Virus record (IMG/VR): IMGVR_UViG_2541047860_000004
DNA length: 16,714 bases
Source of the DNA: a virus
Taxonomy: Duplodnaviria > Heunggongvirae > Uroviricota > Caudoviricetes
Direction: 5' to 3' (one strand)
Below, in pieces: positions 979-15,075 of this stretch. Each line of letters starts with the position of its first letter. Positions within the stretch are counted from its first letter, which is position 1. Both the position numbers and the translations under genes were made by a program. Below the pieces are notes generated by a model. It was given only the letters and a program-made list of their open reading frames with translations. It ran no database searches and was not told the origin of the DNA.

Positions 979-2028
979 TTACGCCAGTACGCCAATTGCC
1001 AGCGCGCGATCGATAAAACGAAATATCAGCTCCAGTTGGGAGCCATACTTATCTTCAAATGCCACTGTATCCGTATGCAGCTCGTTGTGATGCTTTCTGC
1101 ACAAAGGCAACACAAAGAGATCATGTGCTTTTGTTCCCATTCCGCCCTGCCCGTGACCAATCAGATGATGCGGATCGTCGGCTGGCATACCGCAGCAAGC
1201 ACACGGCTGTGTCTTAACCCAACGTGTGTATTTCTCCTTAACCCAGCGGCGACGTTTAGGCAGCTTCATGAAAGATTCCGGAGACTCTGGATCAACGGTG
1301 ATGCTTACCACCGTCTTTTCCTGTGGTGATTTTTGTTGCTGGTGGGCGTAAGGCAACGGTGCAAGATTTTTTGTGCGTTGTTTCAATATGCTGGTGGCGG
1401 TCTGCTCTCCCGGTACGATGTCGCTTTCGCGGTACACCGAGCAGATTTTTTCCGCTGGTAATCCCAGCGAACGACGCGATACAGCCTCAGGTAGTGCATC
1501 CACCACCTGATTGCAGACCGCCCACCAGGATAATTCAGCCAAAGATAATTCCCGCTCCTGCGTACCGCTTATTGCGTGACGGATGACGTCAATCACCCAT
1601 GCTGTCAGATTTTGTTGAGCAAGCAGCTCCAGTGATTCCGATGTCTGGTCACGCAGTTGGTTGTCGCAGTGCCAGCACAACACCATTGCGCCGGTACCAT
1701 AACGGTGAATGACTGTTTCAGTGTGATGGTAATCGCCATTAGGCCACTGGCAGGATGTAACATGACGTAATAGCCAGTCGGACAATGCGCCAACGCCGCC
1801 AGCAGCACGAATCACCCGTTCGTTACTAAAAAACGGCAGCAATGTTTTGTCTTCCGCCAGCGGCTGGCGAACGGCAGGAACGACTCCGGATGGCAGATTA
1901 CGCATGCTTTTTGGTTCCGGTTCCACCAGCACTCGAGGATTATGAAATATCTGTATGGATTCACGGCCCGGCTTAAGGACCACCAGCCCAAGCTCAGGCA
2001 CCAGAACAGGTCTAAGTAATACCCGCAC
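979..2028 (-). CDS. ydfU: YdfU-like prophage protein with C-terminal Cys/His (HNH-like) motif
   Basis: Track ORF 979..2067 begins with GTG. An in-frame GTG at 2026-2028 has GGAGG 4 nt upstream and sits 1 nt after the stop of the upstream 92-aa ORF, giving 349 aa. C-terminus carries CACCG...HHLIGHG...CRKHHNELH. Exact start is uncertain (first ATG is at 1905). Confidence 0.7.
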   Translation of the reverse strand: MRVLLRPVLVPELGLVVLKPGRESIQIFHNPRVLVEPEPKSMRNLPSGVVPAVRQPLAEDKTLLPFFSNERVIRAAGGVGALSDWLLRHVTSCQWPNGDYHHTETVIHRYGTGAMVLCWHCDNQLRDQTSESLELLAQQNLTAWVIDVIRHAISGTQERELSLAELSWWAVCNQVVDALPEAVSRRSLGLPAEKICSVYRESDIVPGEQTATSILKQRTKNLAPLPYAHQQQKSPQEKTVVSITVDPESPESFMKLPKRRRWVKEKYTRWVKTQPCACCGMPADDPHHLIGHGQGGMGTKAHDLFVLPLCRKHHNELHTDTVAFEDKYGSQLELIFRFIDRALAIGVLA

Positions 2029-2029
2029 G

Positions 2030-2308
2030 TTACCTCCAGATCCGTTGCTGGAAAGTGCGGGACGCACGTGGTGGGCGTTCGGAATAAGGCAGCCTGACAG
2101 AGATTATCCAGTGCCGATAGTCGAGACTGAGAGCTTTCTTAACCTCGAACCCGCGCCTGCGGTAAGAATGAATCAGCCATTCGGCCTGTTCTGCAGTGCA
2201 TGGAGGGTGCTGGAACCATTCAGACTTGAATGCGTGAGAATACCGCCCGTGCGTGCAGGCAAGAACGGGCGAATTATCAGAATTGTAATATTTTGCGTTG
2301 CGTGCCAT
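2030..2308 (-). CDS. Hypothetical prophage protein (92 aa)
   Basis: ATG at 2308 with GGAG about 7 nt upstream; stop at 2030-2032 immediately before the ydfU GTG start, suggesting translational coupling. No family recognised. Confidence 0.4.
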   Translation of the reverse strand: MARNAKYYNSDNSPVLACTHGRYSHAFKSEWFQHPPCTAEQAEWLIHSYRRRGFEVKKALSLDYRHWIISVRLPYSERPPRASRTFQQRIWR

Positions 2309-2374
2309 CGGTTTTCTCCGGTGGCACGGTGTTACTCAGCGGGAGTTCAGCCCCGCGCAAGATTGTAGATGAGT

Positions 2375-2626
2375 TTATTCTTCTGAAAAAGCAGAAAAGC
2401 CAGCTTTTATTCCGATCTCTTTCAATGCCTGTAATGAAGTGACAAACTCACCTTCGCGCAAGATAAATCCGTCCGTGACCCGAGCATCCACAAAATTAAT
2501 TAACGCAGCCCCATTCTTTCGCAAACACATAATGCGGTAATGACTAACAAGATTTCCATTTTCAACGCACACAGCATAGAGGCCATCTTCACAAAAAATT
2601 TTACGCAGTTCTTCGATGTTCATCAT
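2375..2626 (-). CDS. rem: Rem-like small prophage protein (83 aa)
   Basis: ATG-ATG start at 2626 with GGAAGG upstream; lies between ydfU and hokD as in the Qin prophage. Function unknown. Confidence 0.6.
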   Translation of the reverse strand: MMNIEELRKIFCEDGLYAVCVENGNLVSHYRIMCLRKNGAALINFVDARVTDGFILREGEFVTSLQALKEIGIKAGFSAFSEE

Positions 2627-2740
2627 CAGAATCCTTCCGGATAATTAGCTCTCCCCTTTAAGGGACCATCCCTCTTATCCCTGCGCGCTACTTAAGTATT
2701 TTTGATTCTATTCCGGCACCGTCCAGAACTTCAAACGCGT

Positions 2741-4498: not shown

Positions 4499-4859
4499 CG
4501 CCATCAGCCTTTTCTTTAAAGACATATTATCTTTGTATCATTTCTGATAGTTAACATTACAAGATATAAGTAATGGACGCACTCCCAATTAGTCTATTTA
4601 AATCGCCACGAGTTTAACTGACAACCCATGATCAATTATGAATTGCAACTATTTCTGTAGTCACTTTTGTGGGGACAGTCCACAAAACTGCCAACTTCCG
4701 CTTCTTGCTCTTAGCGGACATTAGCATAGGCTATTTACCATAACGCCTCATTACGCGCACCGCCCAGACTGACTCAGCGCGTTTCTGGCATATCCCCGGT
4801 AAAACAAGTAACAAACCACCCGAAAATGAACACCAGAAACGCGACTTAAGAATCTACCC

Positions 4860-6330
4860 TATGAATGGATATGCACTCAACCGAATCGATCTTGGTTTCA
4901 ATCTTTTTTATCGGGATCAGGCTTCTTTTTAGGTAACTTCGGGGGCTTAACTTGCTGATGACTTTGCGTTCGGCGCGTAAGCCAGGGATGGTCAGCTTTA
5001 GGTTTAACATAGTATTTTGAGCGTAAATCAATACGGGCATTATCCACTCGTTCATGGACACTCTTTTCATCATCCAGTGGTATAGGCTCCGGGCCATCAA
5101 CATACTTTTCCCAGCCCAGCGCTTTCCCGTCATACAGAACGTTAATTTCACCGTCAAAGTTCTCGCATACAGTAACAACCGAATGCCTAAGTCGATATCC
5201 CCGGCCCTCACTGCGTACCTGAAACGCACTGCTTTTGTACTGGAAAGTGAGATTTTTAGACAGAACGCGCTTCGCCTGTAGGCTGAAGATATAACCCAGT
5301 TCCTCTTCAGAATGGTGCACATCAAGATGAGCATTATCAGTAGTACGAGGCGACGTAGCGAACCGGTTGTTATAGGCTTCAATAAAGGTCGGCAACCATG
5401 CATTTGCTGTTTCAATATCACTGATATTCTGAAGCCGCATTTCTTTGACCAGCCTGTCCTGTAGTGTCTGATTGGCGCGCTCTACCCGCCCTTTTGCCTG
5501 CGGGCTGTTGGCATGGATTGGCTCGATGCCCAGTGTCTTTATCGCACGAGTGAACTGGGTCAGCTCACCTTCCCGCTCTGGGTTATTTACCCTGAATATA
5601 CTGTGTCTATCAGAGTAGAGAGCGAGCGGTACGCCATGATCATTAAGGTAACCCCGGAGGGTTTCCATGTAAGCCCGGGTTGTTTCAGCAGGCACAAAAC
5701 GCAACGCCATCAACGCACTGGTGGCATCATCAATGAAAACGATCAGTGTACATCTGGGGCCTCGATTTTCAAACCAGTCATGAGGTGAGCCATCAATCTG
5801 GATCAGTTCACCGTAAGATGGTCGTCGCATGCGGCGTTGATATATACGGGCAATTTTACGACGGCGTTCACGCCATAACCCCTCTTCTATCATCCACTTT
5901 CTGAGAGTTTCAACGGATAAAGATAAACCGTGTATCTCGCGCAATTTTTCGCACGCAAACGTAGGTCCAAAATCAGCGTAACGGCCTTTGAGGAGTGAAA
6001 TTACTGTTGCTCTGAATTCAGTAGAAAAGGAATTATTAGGACGCTTTCCACGTCGGTGGGAAACCAGACCAGAAGGCCCTTCATTTCTATACCGTTGCAC
6101 CAGACGTTTAACCTGCCGAATAGAAATGCCAATGCGTGCCGCAGCTTGTTCCTGAATAATCTGAAGTCGATGGAGTTCCTTATGACTCATCGTAACAGTC
6201 TCTTTGATCATGAAAAATCCCCCAGAGAATTGTCTGGGGACATTTTAGAATGGTTCAAAGGGGACATTACAGCTTGGTGTTAACAATAGCCTGCTTCTCC
6301 GTGCCTTTCGGCACGTAAGAGGCTAACCTA
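4860..6330 (-). mobile_element. Insertion element carrying the rve-type transposase (boundaries approximate)
   Basis: Transposase ORF flanked by non-coding sequence; the K-12 Qin arrangement as I recall it has no such gene between flxA and dicC. I could not identify terminal inverted repeats or target-site duplications by eye. Confidence 0.4.
4898..6211 (-). CDS. DDE transposase, rve (integrase-core) type with N-terminal helix-turn-helix (437 aa)
   Basis: ATG at 6211 (alternative ATG at 6190). N-terminal HTH-like segment (GISIRQVKRLVQRY), then DDE-like residues (IQIDGS..., LYSDRHSIF, and the E-x6-R signature in PQAKGRVERANQTL) and a basic C-terminal tail. Single long ORF suggests an IS481/ISNCY-like element; family not resolved. 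Confidence 0.8.
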   Translation of the reverse strand: MIKETVTMSHKELHRLQIIQEQAAARIGISIRQVKRLVQRYRNEGPSGLVSHRRGKRPNNSFSTEFRATVISLLKGRYADFGPTFACEKLREIHGLSLSVETLRKWMIEEGLWRERRRKIARIYQRRMRRPSYGELIQIDGSPHDWFENRGPRCTLIVFIDDATSALMALRFVPAETTRAYMETLRGYLNDHGVPLALYSDRHSIFRVNNPEREGELTQFTRAIKTLGIEPIHANSPQAKGRVERANQTLQDRLVKEMRLQNISDIETANAWLPTFIEAYNNRFATSPRTTDNAHLDVHHSEEELGYIFSLQAKRVLSKNLTFQYKSSAFQVRSEGRGYRLRHSVVTVCENFDGEINVLYDGKALGWEKYVDGPEPIPLDDEKSVHERVDNARIDLRSKYYVKPKADHPWLTRRTQSHQQVKPPKLPKKKPDPDKKD

Positions 6331-6545
6331 CATGTGTCTAGCATGAAATTGGCCTCAGATTAATGTTAAGCGTCTTGCAGGACGCGTAATGTTAACTGGG
6401 GCTTTTCTCTATCTGCCGTTGGTGTCCATGCCCGAGGCAGATAGCCTCAAGCACCCGCAGTCATTCTACTTAACTAAGATTTCCCCGCAAACCGTTTTTG
6501 TCCAGCACAGTAAATATCCAACTAAACCAATGGAGTTCGCTGTAT

Positions 6546-7878: not shown

Positions 7879-8235
7879 TTAAAAAATCAGAACGCCGTGC
7901 GGCCTCAACACCCGAAAGGCTTCTTTAAATCTCTGTCGCGAATCATCACGCCAGGCATCTTTATTCAGCCGTCCATATTTCTTTCCCATCCAGGCGTTAT
8001 CACCAACACTCTCAAGATGCGGAGGGTCTAATACAACCATCGAAAAAGATGCGTCTGCAAATGATAATGCACGAAAATCTGCGATAATGTCAGGGCTGAT
8101 AATCAAGCGTCTCCCATTGCGTAATGTGTATCCTTCTTTTCTGATATCGCTGAATATCGCCCGTTCGTCAGACTTATCGAACCAGAACATGCGGCTGCCA
8201 CAGCACATATCAAGAATGGTTGCCGGTGCACTCAC
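7879..8235 (-). CDS. Class I SAM-dependent methyltransferase-like protein, probably truncated (118 aa)
   Basis: Rossmann-fold methyltransferase motifs in order: motif I ILDMCCGS, post-I FADASFSMVVLD, motif III-like LRPHGVLIF. The ORF stops right after motif III, so the C-terminal part of the fold is missing. Start is GTG overlapping the upstream stop (GTGA). Confidence 0.45.
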   Translation of the reverse strand: MSAPATILDMCCGSRMFWFDKSDERAIFSDIRKEGYTLRNGRRLIISPDIIADFRALSFADASFSMVVLDPPHLESVGDNAWMGKKYGRLNKDAWRDDSRQRFKEAFRVLRPHGVLIF

Positions 8236-8654
8236 TGCGCCACGTCCTGAAAATTACCCTGATAGAAAGCCAGTATGCGCTGCATAACTTCGCTCTTCCG
8301 GCACTCGCGACAGATTATGTTTAGGCGACTGTCGTAGCGACGTATTTCTCCGTCAGGTGATGACCAGATAAGGTCCGGATCAACCACAGCAGGTTTCTTC
8401 ACCTTTGCCCTCGAGAGTTTTTTGCGGGCGTTTTGCCAGTCCTTACGCGCCTGTTCAGAGGGGAATAACCCGTAGCCGGAGTTGTATACATCGCCACTGG
8501 CTACCAGCTCTCTGGCAAGAACGCTCATCAGATATCTAGTCGCACCTGTTTTAGCTTCCAGTTGCCGTAACGTCTCACGGCCGCTCTGGCGCACGAGTTC
8601 CACCACCTGCCATTTAATTTTTTCCCGCTCTTCTTGTGTAAAAACTTTTGCCAC
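8232..8654 (-). CDS. Hypothetical protein (140 aa) upstream of the methyltransferase-like ORF
   Basis: GTG start at 8654 with AAGGGGG 4 nt upstream; stop overlaps the next ORF start. Basic, with a CRECRK motif; no family recognised. Could be the N-terminal part of a frame-shifted larger gene. Confidence 0.4.
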   Translation of the reverse strand: MAKVFTQEEREKIKWQVVELVRQSGRETLRQLEAKTGATRYLMSVLARELVASGDVYNSGYGLFPSEQARKDWQNARKKLSRAKVKKPAVVDPDLIWSSPDGEIRRYDSRLNIICRECRKSEVMQRILAFYQGNFQDVAQ

Positions 8655-8694: not shown

Positions 8695-9660
8695 TTATCC
8701 TCTGAAACCAGGCGGAATTTCTGTATCCGGTTCAGAAATATGATTAACACAACGCTGTACAGGTGAACGTCCCAGGCGGATGACCAGTTCGTCCCATTTT
8801 TCGCGGAGCTTTGACGGGCTCATGATGTTTTTTACCCAGAATGGATCTCGCTGAACCCGACCAAACATTTCGCAAATTTGTCTGTGGCTTCTGCCATCCA
8901 GCATCCGCATTGTGCGCACGTCATTGGCCCAGGCAGTCCAGTTAGGCTCTTTTGGTCGCATGATCTCGCCATCATCACTGGCTGCCTGTTCGTAGAGACC
9001 CACGATCCGCCCCCAGATCCACTGCGCACACGCCAAATCCTCCCTGCTACCCCACTGGCGTTTTTTCGCACTAAACACAACCGCGTCGGAGTTCCGGGTT
9101 AAAAAATCCTGTTCAGTCGTCTGCGGGTCCGGTTGCGAAGCTTCCGGACGAAAAGTGTTTTTATTCTCTGTAGTAATCTCTGTTGTATTCTCTGTAAGAT
9201 CATCAGGCCATTTTGACCCGATGACATTGGGTCGTTTTGAACCAATGGAGCGTTTCATTTTGACCTCTTCCATCGTGTCATTTTGACCTGATGGAGCGGC
9301 GCATTTTGAACCGATGGATTCGCTCAATTTGCCACCATCTAAAAGCTCGCTCCCATAGTTGATCGTGTAGAAATTGGTCATATCGCGCTTTGATTTATTG
9401 AGCTTTTCACAACGCAAAAGCCCCAGCGTTTTCAGACTTGCAAACGCGCGCTTTAACGTTGACTCTGACCAGAATGGGAACTGTTCCAGCCATTGTTCCG
9501 TTGTGTTATAAATCCAGCGAACACCATCACATTCCATGCCGGAGTTGGTATCTCTCAACCAGTAGTGCAGTTGTTGCAAAACAATGGCTTCGTTTAAGCC
9601 AATTTTCATTGCCAGCTGCGTGTTTATAACCAGTGGGCGTTCAGCAAAAAGAAGGCTCAT
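8695..9660 (-). CDS. Lambda O-like replication initiator protein
   Basis: Track ORF 8695..9714 begins with TTG; first ATG at 9660. Sits in the O position after the cro/cII-like genes. The coding sequence contains five regularly spaced iterons that encode repeated SIGSK peptide motifs, as in lambda O where ori lies inside the gene. Confidence 0.65.
   Translation of the reverse strand: MSLLFAERPLVINTQLAMKIGLNEAIVLQQLHYWLRDTNSGMECDGVRWIYNTTEQWLEQFPFWSESTLKRAFASLKTLGLLRCEKLNKSKRDMTNFYTINYGSELLDGGKLSESIGSKCAAPSGQNDTMEEVKMKRSIGSKRPNVIGSKWPDDLTENTTEITTENKNTFRPEASQPDPQTTEQDFLTRNSDAVVFSAKKRQWGSREDLACAQWIWGRIVGLYEQAASDDGEIMRPKEPNWTAWANDVRTMRMLDGRSHRQICEMFGRVQRDPFWVKNIMSPSKLREKWDELVIRLGRSPVQRCVNHISEPDTEIPPGFRG
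9209..9317. repeat. Iteron array (putative prophage origin) inside the O-like gene
   Basis: Five copies of CATTTTGA(A)CC(N)ATGG with the TTTTGA core starting at 9211, 9235, 9258, 9281 and 9304 (spacing 24, 23, 23, 23 bp). Flanked at 9150-9205 by an AT-rich stretch with repeated TTCTCTGTA. Confidence 0.65.
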
Positions 9661-10162
9661 AATTCCATCCAGCTTTTTGTTGGTATTGCTGTCGATACGC
9701 AAGTTTGAAAGCAATTGCTTTTTCTATAAGTTCGTCAGTTTCACGATCCACTACGGCAGGATCAGCAAAAAGCAGTCCGGACTCCACCACATCGCCATAT
9801 TCTTTGTTTAACCCGGCGATCATGCACGTGATGCTTTTTCCGTCAGTAATTTCACGATACAACCTGAAATCATTAATCCGGATAGCCTCCATAATTGCAG
9901 GCACTAGCGCCGTGAACTTTTCACGCTTATCCCTGGTGTCGATAGCCTTCCAGCGTTCAAATATCTTCACTCGATTAACGCCAAGCGCTCGCTGATCAAT
10001 CGCGCCACCTTCATATGTGACACGCTGAACATCGATGTTCGGGCGCTCTTTCAAAGCCCAGAATGCTTCAGTGATTAATATCGTCGCCTGCTCCTGTGTC
10101 ATTCCTGGTCGACATATCCAGGCATCCAGAGCCTCACGAGCCTGTTCAGGAGTGATTTTCAT
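9641..10162 (-). CDS. Hypothetical regulatory protein in the cII position (173 aa)
   Basis: ATG at 10162, overlapping the dicC stop by 17 nt; the 3' end overlaps the O-like start. No family recognised with confidence. Confidence 0.5.
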   Translation of the reverse strand: MKITPEQAREALDAWICRPGMTQEQATILITEAFWALKERPNIDVQRVTYEGGAIDQRALGVNRVKIFERWKAIDTRDKREKFTALVPAIMEAIRINDFRLYREITDGKSITCMIAGLNKEYGDVVESGLLFADPAVVDRETDELIEKAIAFKLAYRQQYQQKAGWNYEPSFC

Positions 10163-10390: not shown

Positions 10391-10455
10391 TTGTTAGTCA
10401 TAACTAACAAGATAGATGTTAACAAAAACATAGTCAATACGATTTAGCATTAGCT
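10391..10455. promoter_or_regulatory. Candidate DicA/DicC operator sites in the dicC-dicA intergenic region
   Basis: Palindrome TTGTTAGT-CATA-ACTAACAA at 10391-10410 and TTAGCTAACTA at 10445-10455 overlapping the dicA start; related TGTTAG(T/C)(C/T)AT motifs recur at 10902-10917 and 10939-10948. Confidence 0.4.
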
Positions 10456-11907: not shown

Positions 11908-11965
11908 TTTCTGGTGACGTTTGGCGGTATCAGTTTTACTCCGTGACTGCTCTGCCGCCCTTTTT
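11908..11965 (+). ncRNA. dicF: DicF small regulatory RNA (about 53 nt plus U-tail)
   Basis: TTTCTGGTGACGTTTGGCGGTATCAGTTTTACTCCGTGACTGCTCTGCCGCCC followed by TTTTT, recognised as DicF; lies between ydfC and dicB with a GGCGG...CCGCC terminal hairpin. Confidence 0.85.
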
Positions 11966-12603: not shown

Positions 12604-15075
12604 ATGAGTAAAGTCTTTATTTGCGCCGCTATTCCTGACGAACTGGCAACAAGGGAAGAAGGCGCTGTGGCTGTAGCCACAGCCATTGAAGCTGGCGACG
12701 AACGCCGTGCTCGAGCAAAATTTCACTGGCAATTCCTGGAACATTATCCGGCTGCTCAGGACTGCGCTTATAAATTTATTGTCTGCGAGGATAAACCTGG
12801 CATACCCCGCCCTGCCCTCGATTCATGGGATGCTGAATATATGCAGGAAAACCGCTGGGATGAGGAGTCTGCTTCTTTTGTCCCGGTTGAGACTGAATCC
12901 GATCCGATGAACGTCACTTTTGACAAGCTGGCCCCTGAAGTACAGAACGCTGTCATGGTTAAGTTCGACACATGTGAAAACATCACCGTTGATATGGTTA
13001 TTAGCGCACAGGAATTGTTGCAGGAAGACATGGCAACATTCGACGGACATATCGTTGAAGCGTTGATGAAAATGCCAGAAGTTAACGCCATGTATCCGGA
13101 GCTTAAGTTGCACGCCATTGGGTGGGTTAAGCATAAATGTATTCCTGGTGCTAAATGGCCCGAAATTCAGGCAGAGATGCGCATCTGGAAAAAACGTCGC
13201 GAAGGTGAACGCAAGGAAACCGGAAAATACACGTCTGTTGTTGATCTCGCCCGCGCCAGAGCCAATCAACAGTACACTGAAAATTCAACAGGAAAAATCA
13301 GCCCGGTCATTGCTGCCATTCATCGCGAATACAAGCAGACATGGAAAACACTGGATGACGAACTGGCCTACGCTCTCTGGCCTAGTGATGTGGATGCCGG
13401 AAACATTGACGGCAGCATCCATCGCTGGGCAAAAAAAGAAGTTATCGACAACGACCGCGAAGACTGGAAGCGTATCTCGGCATCAATGCGCAAACAGCCT
13501 GATGCCCTTCGCTACGACCGCCAAACTATTTTTGGCCTTGTCCGTGAGCGTCCGATCGACATTCACAAAGATCCCGTAGCACTGAACAAATATATCTGCG
13601 AATACCTGACGACAAAGGGCGTGTTTGAGAATGAAGAAACAGACCTGGGCACTGTTGATGTTCTCCAGTCATCAGAAACACAAACTGATGCAGTGGAAAC
13701 TGAGGTATCTGATATCCCAAAAAATGAAACCGCGCCGGAAGCTGAACCATCTGTAGAGCGTGAGGGGCCGTTCTATTTCCTCTTCGCAGATAAGGACGGA
13801 GAAAAATACGGTCGCGCAAACAAACTCTCTGGTCTGGATAAGGCACTGGCTGCTGGCGCCACTGAAATCACAAAAGAAGAATATTTTGCCCGAAAAAATG
13901 GCACATACACGGGCTTACCGCAAAATGTAGATACCGCTGAAGATTCAGAACAACCAGAGCCGATAAAAGTTACCGCTGACGAAGTAAACAAAATTATGCA
14001 GGCAGCCAATATCAGCCAGCCTGACGCCGATAAGTTGCTTGCTGCATCACGTGGTGAATTTGTTGAAGGGATTAGTGACCCGAATGATCCGAAATGGGTT
14101 AAGGGGCTCCAGACCCGCGATTCTGTGAACCAGAACCAGCATGAATCGGAACGGAACTACCAAAAAGCGGAACAAAACAGTCCAAATGCGTTACAAAACG
14201 AGCCAGAAACGAAACAGCCTGAACCAGTAGCGCAACAGGAAGTGGAAAAAGTCTGCACCGCCTGCGGTCAGACCGGCGGCGGCAACTGCCCTGATTGTGG
14301 CGCGGTGATGGGCGACGCAACATACCAAGAAACATTCGATGAAGAGTATCAGGTTGAAGTTCAGGAAGATGATCCGGAGGAAATGGAAGGCGCTGAACAT
14401 CCACACAAGGAGAACACTGGCGGCAATCAGCATCACAATAGCGATAATGAAACTGGCGAGACGGCAGATCACCCAATTAAGGTGAACGGTCATCACGAAA
14501 TCACATCCACCAGCAGGACGTGTGACCATCTAATGATCGACCTTGAAACCATGGGAAAAAATCCTGATGCCCCGATCATCTCAATAGGTGCAATATTTTT
14601 CGATCCGCAAACCGGAGATATGGGACCGGAATTTAGTAAGACTATCGATCTGGAAACTGCTGGCGGAGTCATTGATCGGGACACCATTAAATGGTGGCTT
14701 AAGCAATCACGCGAAGCGCAATCGGCCATTATGACCGATGAAATCCCGTTAGATGATGCACTGTTACAATTGCGGGAATTTATCGACGAAAACTCCGGTG
14801 AATTTTTTGTTCAGGTTTGGGGAAATGGAGCCAACTTCGACAACACGATTTTGCGCCGTTCATACGAACGGCAGGGGATCCCCTGCCCGTGGCGTTACTA
14901 CAACGATCGCGATGTACGCACAATCGTTGAGCTGGGGAAAGCCATAGACTTCGATGCCAGAACGGCTATTCCATTCGAAGGTGAGCGCCATAATGCACTT
15001 GATGACGCCCGTTACCAGGCAAAATACGTTTCAGTTATCTGGCAAAAACTGATCCCGAGTCAGGCTGATTCTTAA
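12604..15075 (+). CDS. YdfE-like large prophage protein (823 aa) with C-terminal DEDDh-type 3'-5' exonuclease domain
   Basis: Track ORF begins with TTG at 12568; the ATG at 12604 has GAGG 8 nt upstream. Unknown N-terminal domain of about 350 aa, acidic low-complexity linker, zinc ribbon CTACGQTGGGNCPDCG (about 14254-14301), then an exonuclease domain with motifs IDLET, WGNGANFD and HNALDDA (about 14521-15072). Confidence 0.8.
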   Translation: MSKVFICAAIPDELATREEGAVAVATAIEAGDERRARAKFHWQFLEHYPAAQDCAYKFIVCEDKPGIPRPALDSWDAEYMQENRWDEESASFVPVETESDPMNVTFDKLAPEVQNAVMVKFDTCENITVDMVISAQELLQEDMATFDGHIVEALMKMPEVNAMYPELKLHAIGWVKHKCIPGAKWPEIQAEMRIWKKRREGERKETGKYTSVVDLARARANQQYTENSTGKISPVIAAIHREYKQTWKTLDDELAYALWPSDVDAGNIDGSIHRWAKKEVIDNDREDWKRISASMRKQPDALRYDRQTIFGLVRERPIDIHKDPVALNKYICEYLTTKGVFENEETDLGTVDVLQSSETQTDAVETEVSDIPKNETAPEAEPSVEREGPFYFLFADKDGEKYGRANKLSGLDKALAAGATEITKEEYFARKNGTYTGLPQNVDTAEDSEQPEPIKVTADEVNKIMQAANISQPDADKLLAASRGEFVEGISDPNDPKWVKGLQTRDSVNQNQHESERNYQKAEQNSPNALQNEPETKQPEPVAQQEVEKVCTACGQTGGGNCPDCGAVMGDATYQETFDEEYQVEVQEDDPEEMEGAEHPHKENTGGNQHHNSDNETGETADHPIKVNGHHEITSTSRTCDHLMIDLETMGKNPDAPIISIGAIFFDPQTGDMGPEFSKTIDLETAGGVIDRDTIKWWLKQSREAQSAIMTDEIPLDDALLQLREFIDENSGEFFVQVWGNGANFDNTILRRSYERQGIPCPWRYYNDRDVRTIVELGKAIDFDARTAIPFEGERHNALDDARYQAKYVSVIWQKLIPSQADS

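Follow-up and report, generated by a model that had tools for sequence, protein, structure and literature searches.

A predicted vegetative replication origin lies inside the replication initiator gene of a lambdoid prophage. The gene is O-like and stands on the minus strand of a 16,714-nucleotide (nt) stretch of tailed-phage DNA (Caudoviricetes; IMG/VR record IMGVR_UViG_2541047860_000004), which we call the window and number from its first letter. At 100% identity, the window corresponds in reverse complement to bases 1065-17778 of PV340562.1 (Escherichia phage PhiR42_1, host ECOR13), a Qin/Rac-like lambdoid prophage element. The part of the initiator gene that encodes the linker between two protein domains contains five 23-bp repeats (iterons), followed directly by three tandem AT-rich 12-mers. 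We put the probability that these repeats are the origin of the prophage at roughly 0.85. Iterons and an AT-rich block inside the initiator gene are textbook features of lambdoid phages, SPP1 and RepA_N plasmids.

Repeats in the linker-coding part of the initiator gene

Two repeat finders, one of them TRF, delimited the same five 23-nt units (iterons 1-5 in gene order, Table 1), whose starts are spaced 24, 23, 23 and 23 bp along the window. This agrees with a preliminary description of the locus, made from the sequence alone, which had reported five repeats 23-24 bp apart inside the gene. The repeat unit given there was also found, but is longer than described: it is a 23-bp partial palindrome, which reads CATCGGkTCAAAATGrCnCGATG on the gene strand and has 10-bp arms around a 3-bp centre, with an arm symmetry of 8/10 in three copies as read from the sequence. 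The ATGG end ascribed to all five units is lacking in iteron 3, and iteron 4 reads CGTTTTGA. A sixth, degenerate unit (iteron 0) is in register with the others.

Positions 9201-9339 form the most periodic 139-nt stretch of the window. Their lag-23 self-match of 0.56 was reached by none of 5000 shuffles, in which the maximum averaged 0.35 (standard deviation, sd, 0.02). With at most one mismatch, the core GGTCAAAATG occurs four times in the array and once elsewhere in the window; the single iteron-like site outside the array, at 14727, is probably a chance match. The initiator open reading frame (ORF) contains at least four direct repeats with dyad symmetry, about two helical turns apart. They span gene nt 345-460 (residues 115-153), in the linker that joins the N-terminal DNA-binding domain to the C-terminal one, a central position within the gene that is also seen in RepA_N-type initiators.

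The AT-rich repeat block that had been noted beside the iterons consists of three 12-nt units, placed by both repeat finders at 9162, 9174 and 9186 (TATTCTCTGTAG, TAATCTCTGTTG and TATTCTCTGTAA). Local GC content at the block is 0.37, and the least stable 41-bp segment of the O gene starts at 9158, with a free energy (dG) of -45.6 against a gene mean of -56.5 (sd 3.6), 3 sd below. An easily melted AT-rich region is hence found directly after the last iteron in the direction of transcription.

Repeats within a coding sequence could also arise because the peptide linker is itself repetitive and of low complexity (SIGSK..., TENTTEITTEN), with selection acting on the protein and the DNA as such having no function. 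The 12-mers are in frame and encode TEN, TTEI and TTEN, three iterons encode (S/V)IGSK, and linkers tolerate repeats. However, the 23-bp period shifts the reading frame. The codon positions at the starts of the five copies are 2, 1, 0, 2 and 2 in gene order, and the peptides are SIGSK, SGQND, EEVKMK, SIGSK and VIGSK, so that the SIGSK-like motif attributed to the repeats from the start holds for three of the five copies and fails for two. The unit is present in all three frames, where it encodes unrelated peptides, and is therefore constrained as DNA, not as peptide.

Conservation of the repeats and co-inheritance with the N-terminal domain

To compare the locus across bacteria, a species-dereplicated genome collection was queried with an alignment of the initiator N-terminal domain (N-domain), which yielded 80 loci from taxa including Enterobacterales, Pseudomonas, Acinetobacter, Hydrogenimonas, Bacillus, Staphylococcus, lactobacilli, clostridia and Thermomicrobiales. 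A word-indexed protein search gave mostly short fragments and was used solely for building alignments, and scanning viral contigs with the N-domain brought up nothing but E. coli copies at 100% identity, which were of no use for comparison.

The strongest self-match lag in gene nt 280-600 was 22-24 or 45-47 in 58 of 75 loci, compared with 6 of 76 for the downstream and 12 of 78 for the upstream region. A position weight matrix for the iteron core, refined on the family, reads rGGkCAAAwTGmmCy. Its sites occur at 8.6 per kb in the linker versus 0.41 per kb in controls, and 148 of the 164 consecutive spacings are 22-24 bp.

The 12-mers are equally widespread in the family. By a strict rule, the sequence wACAGAGAnTAC follows the iterons in 55 of 75 loci, and nearly every iteron-bearing homologue has 2-5 tandem units of 12 bp, occasionally 11 bp (four copies in one near-identical relative, five in Edwardsiella). 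The 12-mer sequence, with its fixed ACA-GAG codons, is kept in Enterobacterales, lactobacilli and clostridia, in AT-rich Staphylococcus and in GC-rich Thermomicrobiales (gene nt ~365-560). For a codon test, blocks were delimited by the peptide only, wherever Glu returns at every fourth position. Within these blocks Glu is encoded by GAG 115 times and by GAA 17 times, the GAA cases stemming from unrelated DYEKLKEL-type stretches; elsewhere in the same genes the counts are 351 for GAG and 479 for GAA. The codon before Glu is ACA at 88 of the 132 periodic positions.

Among 10 enterobacterial homologues, conservation is 0.84-0.96 in the iterons (0.80-0.94 at third codon positions) and 0.95 in the 12-mer block (0.98 at third positions). 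It drops to 0.70 right after the block, and third codon positions of the N-domain score 0.70. Although the number of 12-mer copies varies between 2 and 5 among homologues, as a tolerant peptide linker would allow, selection on the protein accounts poorly for third positions that are more conserved in the array than in the N-domain, or for a GAG/ACA bias in the TExT blocks that holds even in AT-rich Firmicutes; moreover, the corresponding linker peptide of the pSK41 Rep protein is dispensable (PMC5703833). We consider a purely peptide-driven origin of the repeats extremely improbable. The 12-mers are probably recognised specifically, because their exact sequence is kept from Enterobacterales to Firmicutes. 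We infer that they contribute to the origin through their specific sequence, in the simplest case as an unwinding element that the initiator recognises.

Individual phages show which part of the initiator the repeats accompany. Right after the N-domain, three to six GGnCAAAwTG repeats at 22-24 bp are present in mEp460_4F5 (78% nucleotide identity), Klebsiella phage Kp4884-3, Hafnia phage yong2 (N-domain 49% identical) and Staphylococcus phage StauST398-3 (46%). In vB_EcoM-689R6 and vB_EcoS-716R3, which have only the C-terminal domain (C-domain) in common with the window, the repeats are GTCAAAATCTGAC at 15 bp and 12-mer units are absent, and lambda has its own iterons and an AT-rich stretch with only loose resemblance to the 12-mers (AAAGATTAT, CAGAGAATT). 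Nucleotide homology to the Klebsiella phages stops at 9162, where the 12-mer block ends, and homology of 689R6 and 716R3 to the window starts right after their own AT-rich stretch. These boundaries, together with the assortment of iteron types by domain, indicate that the N-domain is passed on as one unit with the iterons and 12-mers, and that the C-domain is exchanged. A lack of conservation in homologous initiator genes had been named beforehand as an outcome that would refute the origin reading; the repeats are conserved across phyla and co-vary with the N-domain rather than with the C-domain.

The origin segment (window 9100-9400) occurs in 1,996 of 5,426 complete E. coli genomes, in ~1,700 of them at an identity of at least 95%. 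Almost all of these copies sit on chromosomes, and most of the RefSeq rows sampled call the gene a 'hypothetical protein'. The same combination of N-domain, iterons and 12-mers is present on NZ_CP016021.1, a 16.4-kb circular plasmid of Bacillus weihaiensis, in which the initiator (1798-2628, minus strand) contains three GGACAAWTTG-type repeats at ~23 bp and the 12-mers CCAGAGAAT, ACAGAGAAT and ACAAAGATT. No second replication gene is annotated in the PLSDB gene table of this plasmid, which is incomplete. The plasmid architecture weakly supports autonomous function. NZ_CP016021.1 also carries a tyrosine recombinase gene and an FtsK-like gene, and may be an excised integrative element.

A different use of the same sites has to be weighed here. 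The iterons could be bound by the initiator for control, as an autoregulatory roadblock in the O gene, in handcuffing and copy control, or in exclusion of related phages, with replication starting elsewhere. Plasmid iterons do also act in copy control, cloned lambda origins are reported to inhibit homologous phages (PMC4488673, PMC3349717), and several intergenic stretches have a lower stability than the 12-mers, whose block takes ninth place among the non-overlapping 41-bp segments of the window. Nevertheless, the window contains no other iteron cluster, and the array invariably comes with the conserved 12-mer block of low stability, which disfavours a role in control only. The pair travels with the N-domain as a module, and a like layout is a proven origin in lambda and pSK41. 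A control-only function is in our view improbable.

A mosaic initiator, its DnaT-like tail and a proposed route of helicase loading

The preliminary description began the initiator gene at a TTG at 9714; the start is instead the ATG at 9660. The protein consists of an N-terminal DNA-binding domain (residues 1-110), the repeat-encoded linker (residues ~113-166) and a C-terminal domain (residues ~170-300). It was assigned to phrog_391 'replication initiation O-like' (E 1e-91), the only other PHROG match label being 'DnaD-like helicase loader'. Pfam and NCBIfam searches placed the initiator in no family and yielded a single sub-threshold match, of its last 20 residues to DnaT; Pfam membership of RepA_N or DnaD was not detected, and a Pfam search with residues 1-114 at E values up to 10 returned nothing beyond noise.

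The gene had been called O-like as a whole, which holds for the C-terminal domain and fails for the N-domain. In BLASTP, residues 147-294 align with residues 135-270 of lambda O (34% identity, E 1e-26) as the sole aligned part, and the N-domain has no detectable relation to the origin-binding domain of lambda O. Residues 1-127, without a lambda O counterpart, are 46% identical to the initiator N-terminus of StauST398-3, and the fold of the N-domain matches the winged helix of DnaD-NTD and of iteron-binding RepA_N proteins. Kp4884-3 has the N-domain and linker in common with the window (61% identity over residues 1-223, homology fading from residue ~180), and its initiator C-terminus looks different by eye.

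The likeness to the lambda origin proposed at the outset is borne out in the order of elements, in their nearly identical position in the gene, in the least stable AT-rich block lying next to the iterons and in the pR-like operon; order and gene position match the published layout of lambdoid origins (PMC7466680). Lambda has four iterons at gene nt 349-433, with spacings of 20, 24 and 23 (annotated record), and the array described here starts at gene nt 345. Both have partly palindromic iterons that centre on an A-tract (lambda ATCCCTCAAAACGAGGGA, here CATCGGGTCAAAATGGCCTGATG) and are spaced 20-24 bp apart; in both, an AT-rich block that is purine-rich on the gene strand comes after them, the gene stands in the pR operon after cII, and the C-terminal domains are homologous. 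The window differs from lambda in an N-domain not detectably related in sequence, in its tandem array of sequence-conserved 12-mers and in an extra DnaT-like tail, and the likeness ends at the partner loader gene, since no gene of the lambda P type follows O. Stx phages 933W and P27, whose origins have six iterons, were grouped with ori-lambda as the closest known systems.

Several other systems keep their origin repeats within the initiator gene. In the RepA_N plasmid pSK41, four Rep boxes in the central part of rep are the binding sites for the first 120 residues of Rep; replication does not require the linker peptide that the origin encodes, and host proteins are contacted by the C-domain (PMC5703833). 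The Rep proteins of pSK41 and pTZ2162 resemble the initiator studied here in the placement of origin repeats in the central linker-coding part and in an exchangeable, host-specific C-domain, but the present initiator has no sequence-level membership of that family, lies in a phage context and has another repeat sequence. In Bacillus phage SPP1, oriL lies inside gene 38, and the replisome organiser G38P binds, or is proposed to bind, repeats in its own gene. The origin of Staphylococcus phage 80alpha was inferred to lie in ORF20, deletion of which could not be complemented in trans (PMC5499656). Both phages differ from the present element in their N-domain family (80alpha ORF20 is reported to be 26% identical to G38P) and in the dedicated loader and helicase genes that follow. 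The combination of repeat types is familiar from oriC and from theta plasmids such as RK2, F and pSC101, where initiator-binding repeats flank short tandem AT-rich unwinding repeats. Those origins are, however, intergenic, and the oriC 13-mer GATCTnTTnTTTT is unrelated to the 12-mer found here.

The initiator ends in a tail that resembles the C-terminus of E. coli DnaT (Table 1); relatives probably owe their RAST label 'Primosomal protein I' to this tail. Among proteobacterial initiators with this tail (..IP.GF(R/K)G), a loader gene comes next in none of 10 sampled loci, the window counted; the genes that follow encode a small winged helix-turn-helix protein, a DUF977 or PerC-like protein, a methylase or a ParB-like protein. 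Among tail-less proteobacterial initiators, by comparison, a loader comes next in 7 of 10 sampled loci (one of the lambda P family, six IstB/DnaC-like AAA+ proteins), which gives a hypergeometric p of about 0.003 for loci that are not independent. The Firmicute initiators have no tail, which fits the distribution of DnaT, to our knowledge confined to some gamma-proteobacteria. The loader-less layout is also present in the deposited phage genomes mEp460_4F5, vB_EcoM-689R6, vB_EcoS-716R3 and Klebsiella Kp4884-3. This association suggests that the tail connects the origin complex to the host's DnaT-dependent loading route. A paper on the preprimosome structure leaves the recruitment of DnaB-DnaC by DnaT open and does not discuss the extreme C-terminus of DnaT (PMC13377028). 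Literature searches for the DnaT-tail motif and for PhiR42_1 or ECOR13 prophages found nothing relevant.

By analogy with lambda and pSK41, dimers of the N-terminal winged helix would bind the five or six partly palindromic 23-bp iterons, through half-sites GGkCA and TGmCC around the A-tract. With a spacing of ~2.2 helical turns, the bound DNA would wrap into an O-some-like nucleoprotein complex, and the resulting strain would open the adjacent three 12-mers (ACAGAGAnTAC). Transcription could assist this step; it is expected to pass through the O gene and the origin, because a pR-like promoter precedes the Cro-like gene. The initiator may recognise the 12-mers themselves, for example as single strands, beyond their serving as AT-rich DNA. 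The C-terminal part would then bring in the host helicase, possibly by way of the DnaT-like tail, and loading would most likely proceed via host DnaB-DnaC, because no phage loader is encoded.

More tentatively, the locus may represent an undescribed cross-phylum module shared by E. coli, Staphylococcus and Thermomicrobiales. It would comprise a DnaD/RepA_N-like winged helix, 23-bp rGGkCAAAwTGmmC iterons and ACAGAGAnTAC 12-mers recognised by the initiator, perhaps in single-stranded form. In its loader-less versions from Enterobacterales, a mimic of the DnaT tail would take the place of the loader and bring the PriA/PriB/DnaT to DnaB-DnaC loading route to bear on a sequence-specific origin. We regard this larger proposal as possible though doubtful.

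Five observations weigh against the assignment of the repeats as an origin. No P, DnaC or DnaB gene follows O, and a partner loader is not found directly downstream. In about a quarter of the homologues, mostly a Bacillus/Neobacillus group, this part of the gene has no clear 23-bp array. Descent or transfer links many of the enterobacterial loci, whose counts are therefore not independent. Between 8600 and 9800 there is no match to the DnaA box or IHF consensus, except for one reverse DnaA-box-like match at 8635, and the searchable literature yielded no binding, unwinding or origin-mapping result for any member of this initiator family and no description of an origin for its N-domain family.

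The first of these could mean that the repeats are an origin by descent that no longer functions, the prophage being a Qin-like relic in decay, deprived of its loader and not replicating on its own. The short methyltransferase ORF (118 residues), a nearby transposase of an insertion sequence (IS) at 4898-6211 and the defective state of the Qin prophage of K-12 fit such decay. Against it, PV340562.1 was deposited as a complete phage genome of 48.7 kb from ECOR13, the initiator ORF is intact and its iterons are well preserved, and the segment is kept at high identity in the ~1,700 E. coli genomes mentioned above. The absence of a loader recurs in deposited phage genomes and goes with the DnaT-like tail, which argues for design rather than decay. 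A relic origin is thus distinctly improbable, and a functional origin remains our preferred interpretation of the repeats.

Genomic setting and significance

The features of the replication region are listed in Table 1.

Table 1. Features of the initiator gene, its repeats and its promoter (window coordinates).
Feature	Position	Strand	Sequence or remark
pR-like promoter	10409..10437	-	TTGACT-17-TATCTT; upstream of Cro(DicC)-like, cII/YdaT-like and O genes
O-like replication initiator gene	8695..9660	-	321 residues, stop codon in coordinates; 100% identical to PV340562.1 coding sequence 'DNA replication protein O'
N-terminal domain coding region (residues 1-110), presumed iteron-binding winged helix	9331..9660	-	
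Iteron 0, degenerate	9317..9339	-	GATGGTGGCAAATTGAGCGAATC on the gene strand; 23 bp from iteron 1; relatives read GTCAAAGTGAC there
Iteron 1	9294..9316	-	CATCGGTTCAAAATGCGCCGCTC
Iteron 2	9271..9293	-	CATCAGGTCAAAATGACACGATG; best conserved copy, 0.96 among 10 enterobacterial homologues
Iteron 3	9248..9270	-	GAAGAGGTCAAAATGAAACGCTC; intact core, poor arms
Iteron 4	9225..9247	-	CATTGGTTCAAAACGACCCAATG
Iteron 5	9201..9223	-	CATCGGGTCAAAATGGCCTGATG; adjoins AT-rich block
Three tandem 12-mers, presumed DNA-unwinding element	9162..9197	-	TTACAGAGAATA CAACAGAGATTA CTACAGAGAATA on the gene strand
Lambda-O-like C-terminal domain coding region (residues 170-294)	8779..9153	-	tblastn against lambda O: 36% identity, E 2e-16
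C-terminal tail resembling E. coli DnaT C-terminus	8698..8760	-	VQRCVNHISEPDTEIPPGFRG; 15/21 residues identical to DnaT chains 2ru8, 6aep, 9zbt

On the minus strand, a Cro(DicC)-like gene and a YdaT/cII-like gene (9641-10162) precede O. It is followed by a DUF977 gene ('LygF', PHROG Ren-like; 8232-8654) and then by the short methyltransferase ORF (7879-8235, minus strand), which has partial Methyltransf_11/25 matches and may be truncated. Further along come IS, hok/sok, relBE and Q genes; the IS transposase pair (4846-6211, minus strand) separates the replication genes from the flxA/relBE block. The window also contains integrase, excisionase, exoVIII-like and ydfA/B/C-type genes and a gene for a DicA-like repressor.

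Rfam searches located the DicF small RNA at 11909-11960 (plus strand, 76.7 bits) and the sok antitoxin RNA at 6285-6456 (minus strand, 104 bits). By DicF, sok, relBE, flxA and the ydfA/B/C/U/V-type genes, the element is recognised as an intact relative of the K-12 Qin prophage, which is defective. A weak 21-nt periodicity at 14096-14240 (plus strand), in the exoVIII-like gene, is a two-copy repeat of 71% identity in a Q/E/N-rich segment; this second periodic stretch was dropped as a weak repeat, probably of no significance.

With this assignment, an origin and an initiator can be put to the test for one of the commonest prophage replication modules of E. coli, present in about a third of complete genomes. 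It also supplies a simple rule for finding the origin in this initiator family of phages and plasmids, which spans many phyla: an array of 23-bp GGnCAAAwTG repeats and ACAGAGAnTAC 12-mers directly after the conserved N-domain. Two side results could outweigh the origin call itself, namely an unwinding element of fixed sequence across phyla and the association of a DnaT-like tail with the absence of a loader gene. The cross-phylum 12-mer and the tail-loader association, as read from sequence comparison, are the parts that a specialist might not expect, and the latter bears on what DnaT contacts during the recruitment of DnaB-DnaC (PMC13377028).

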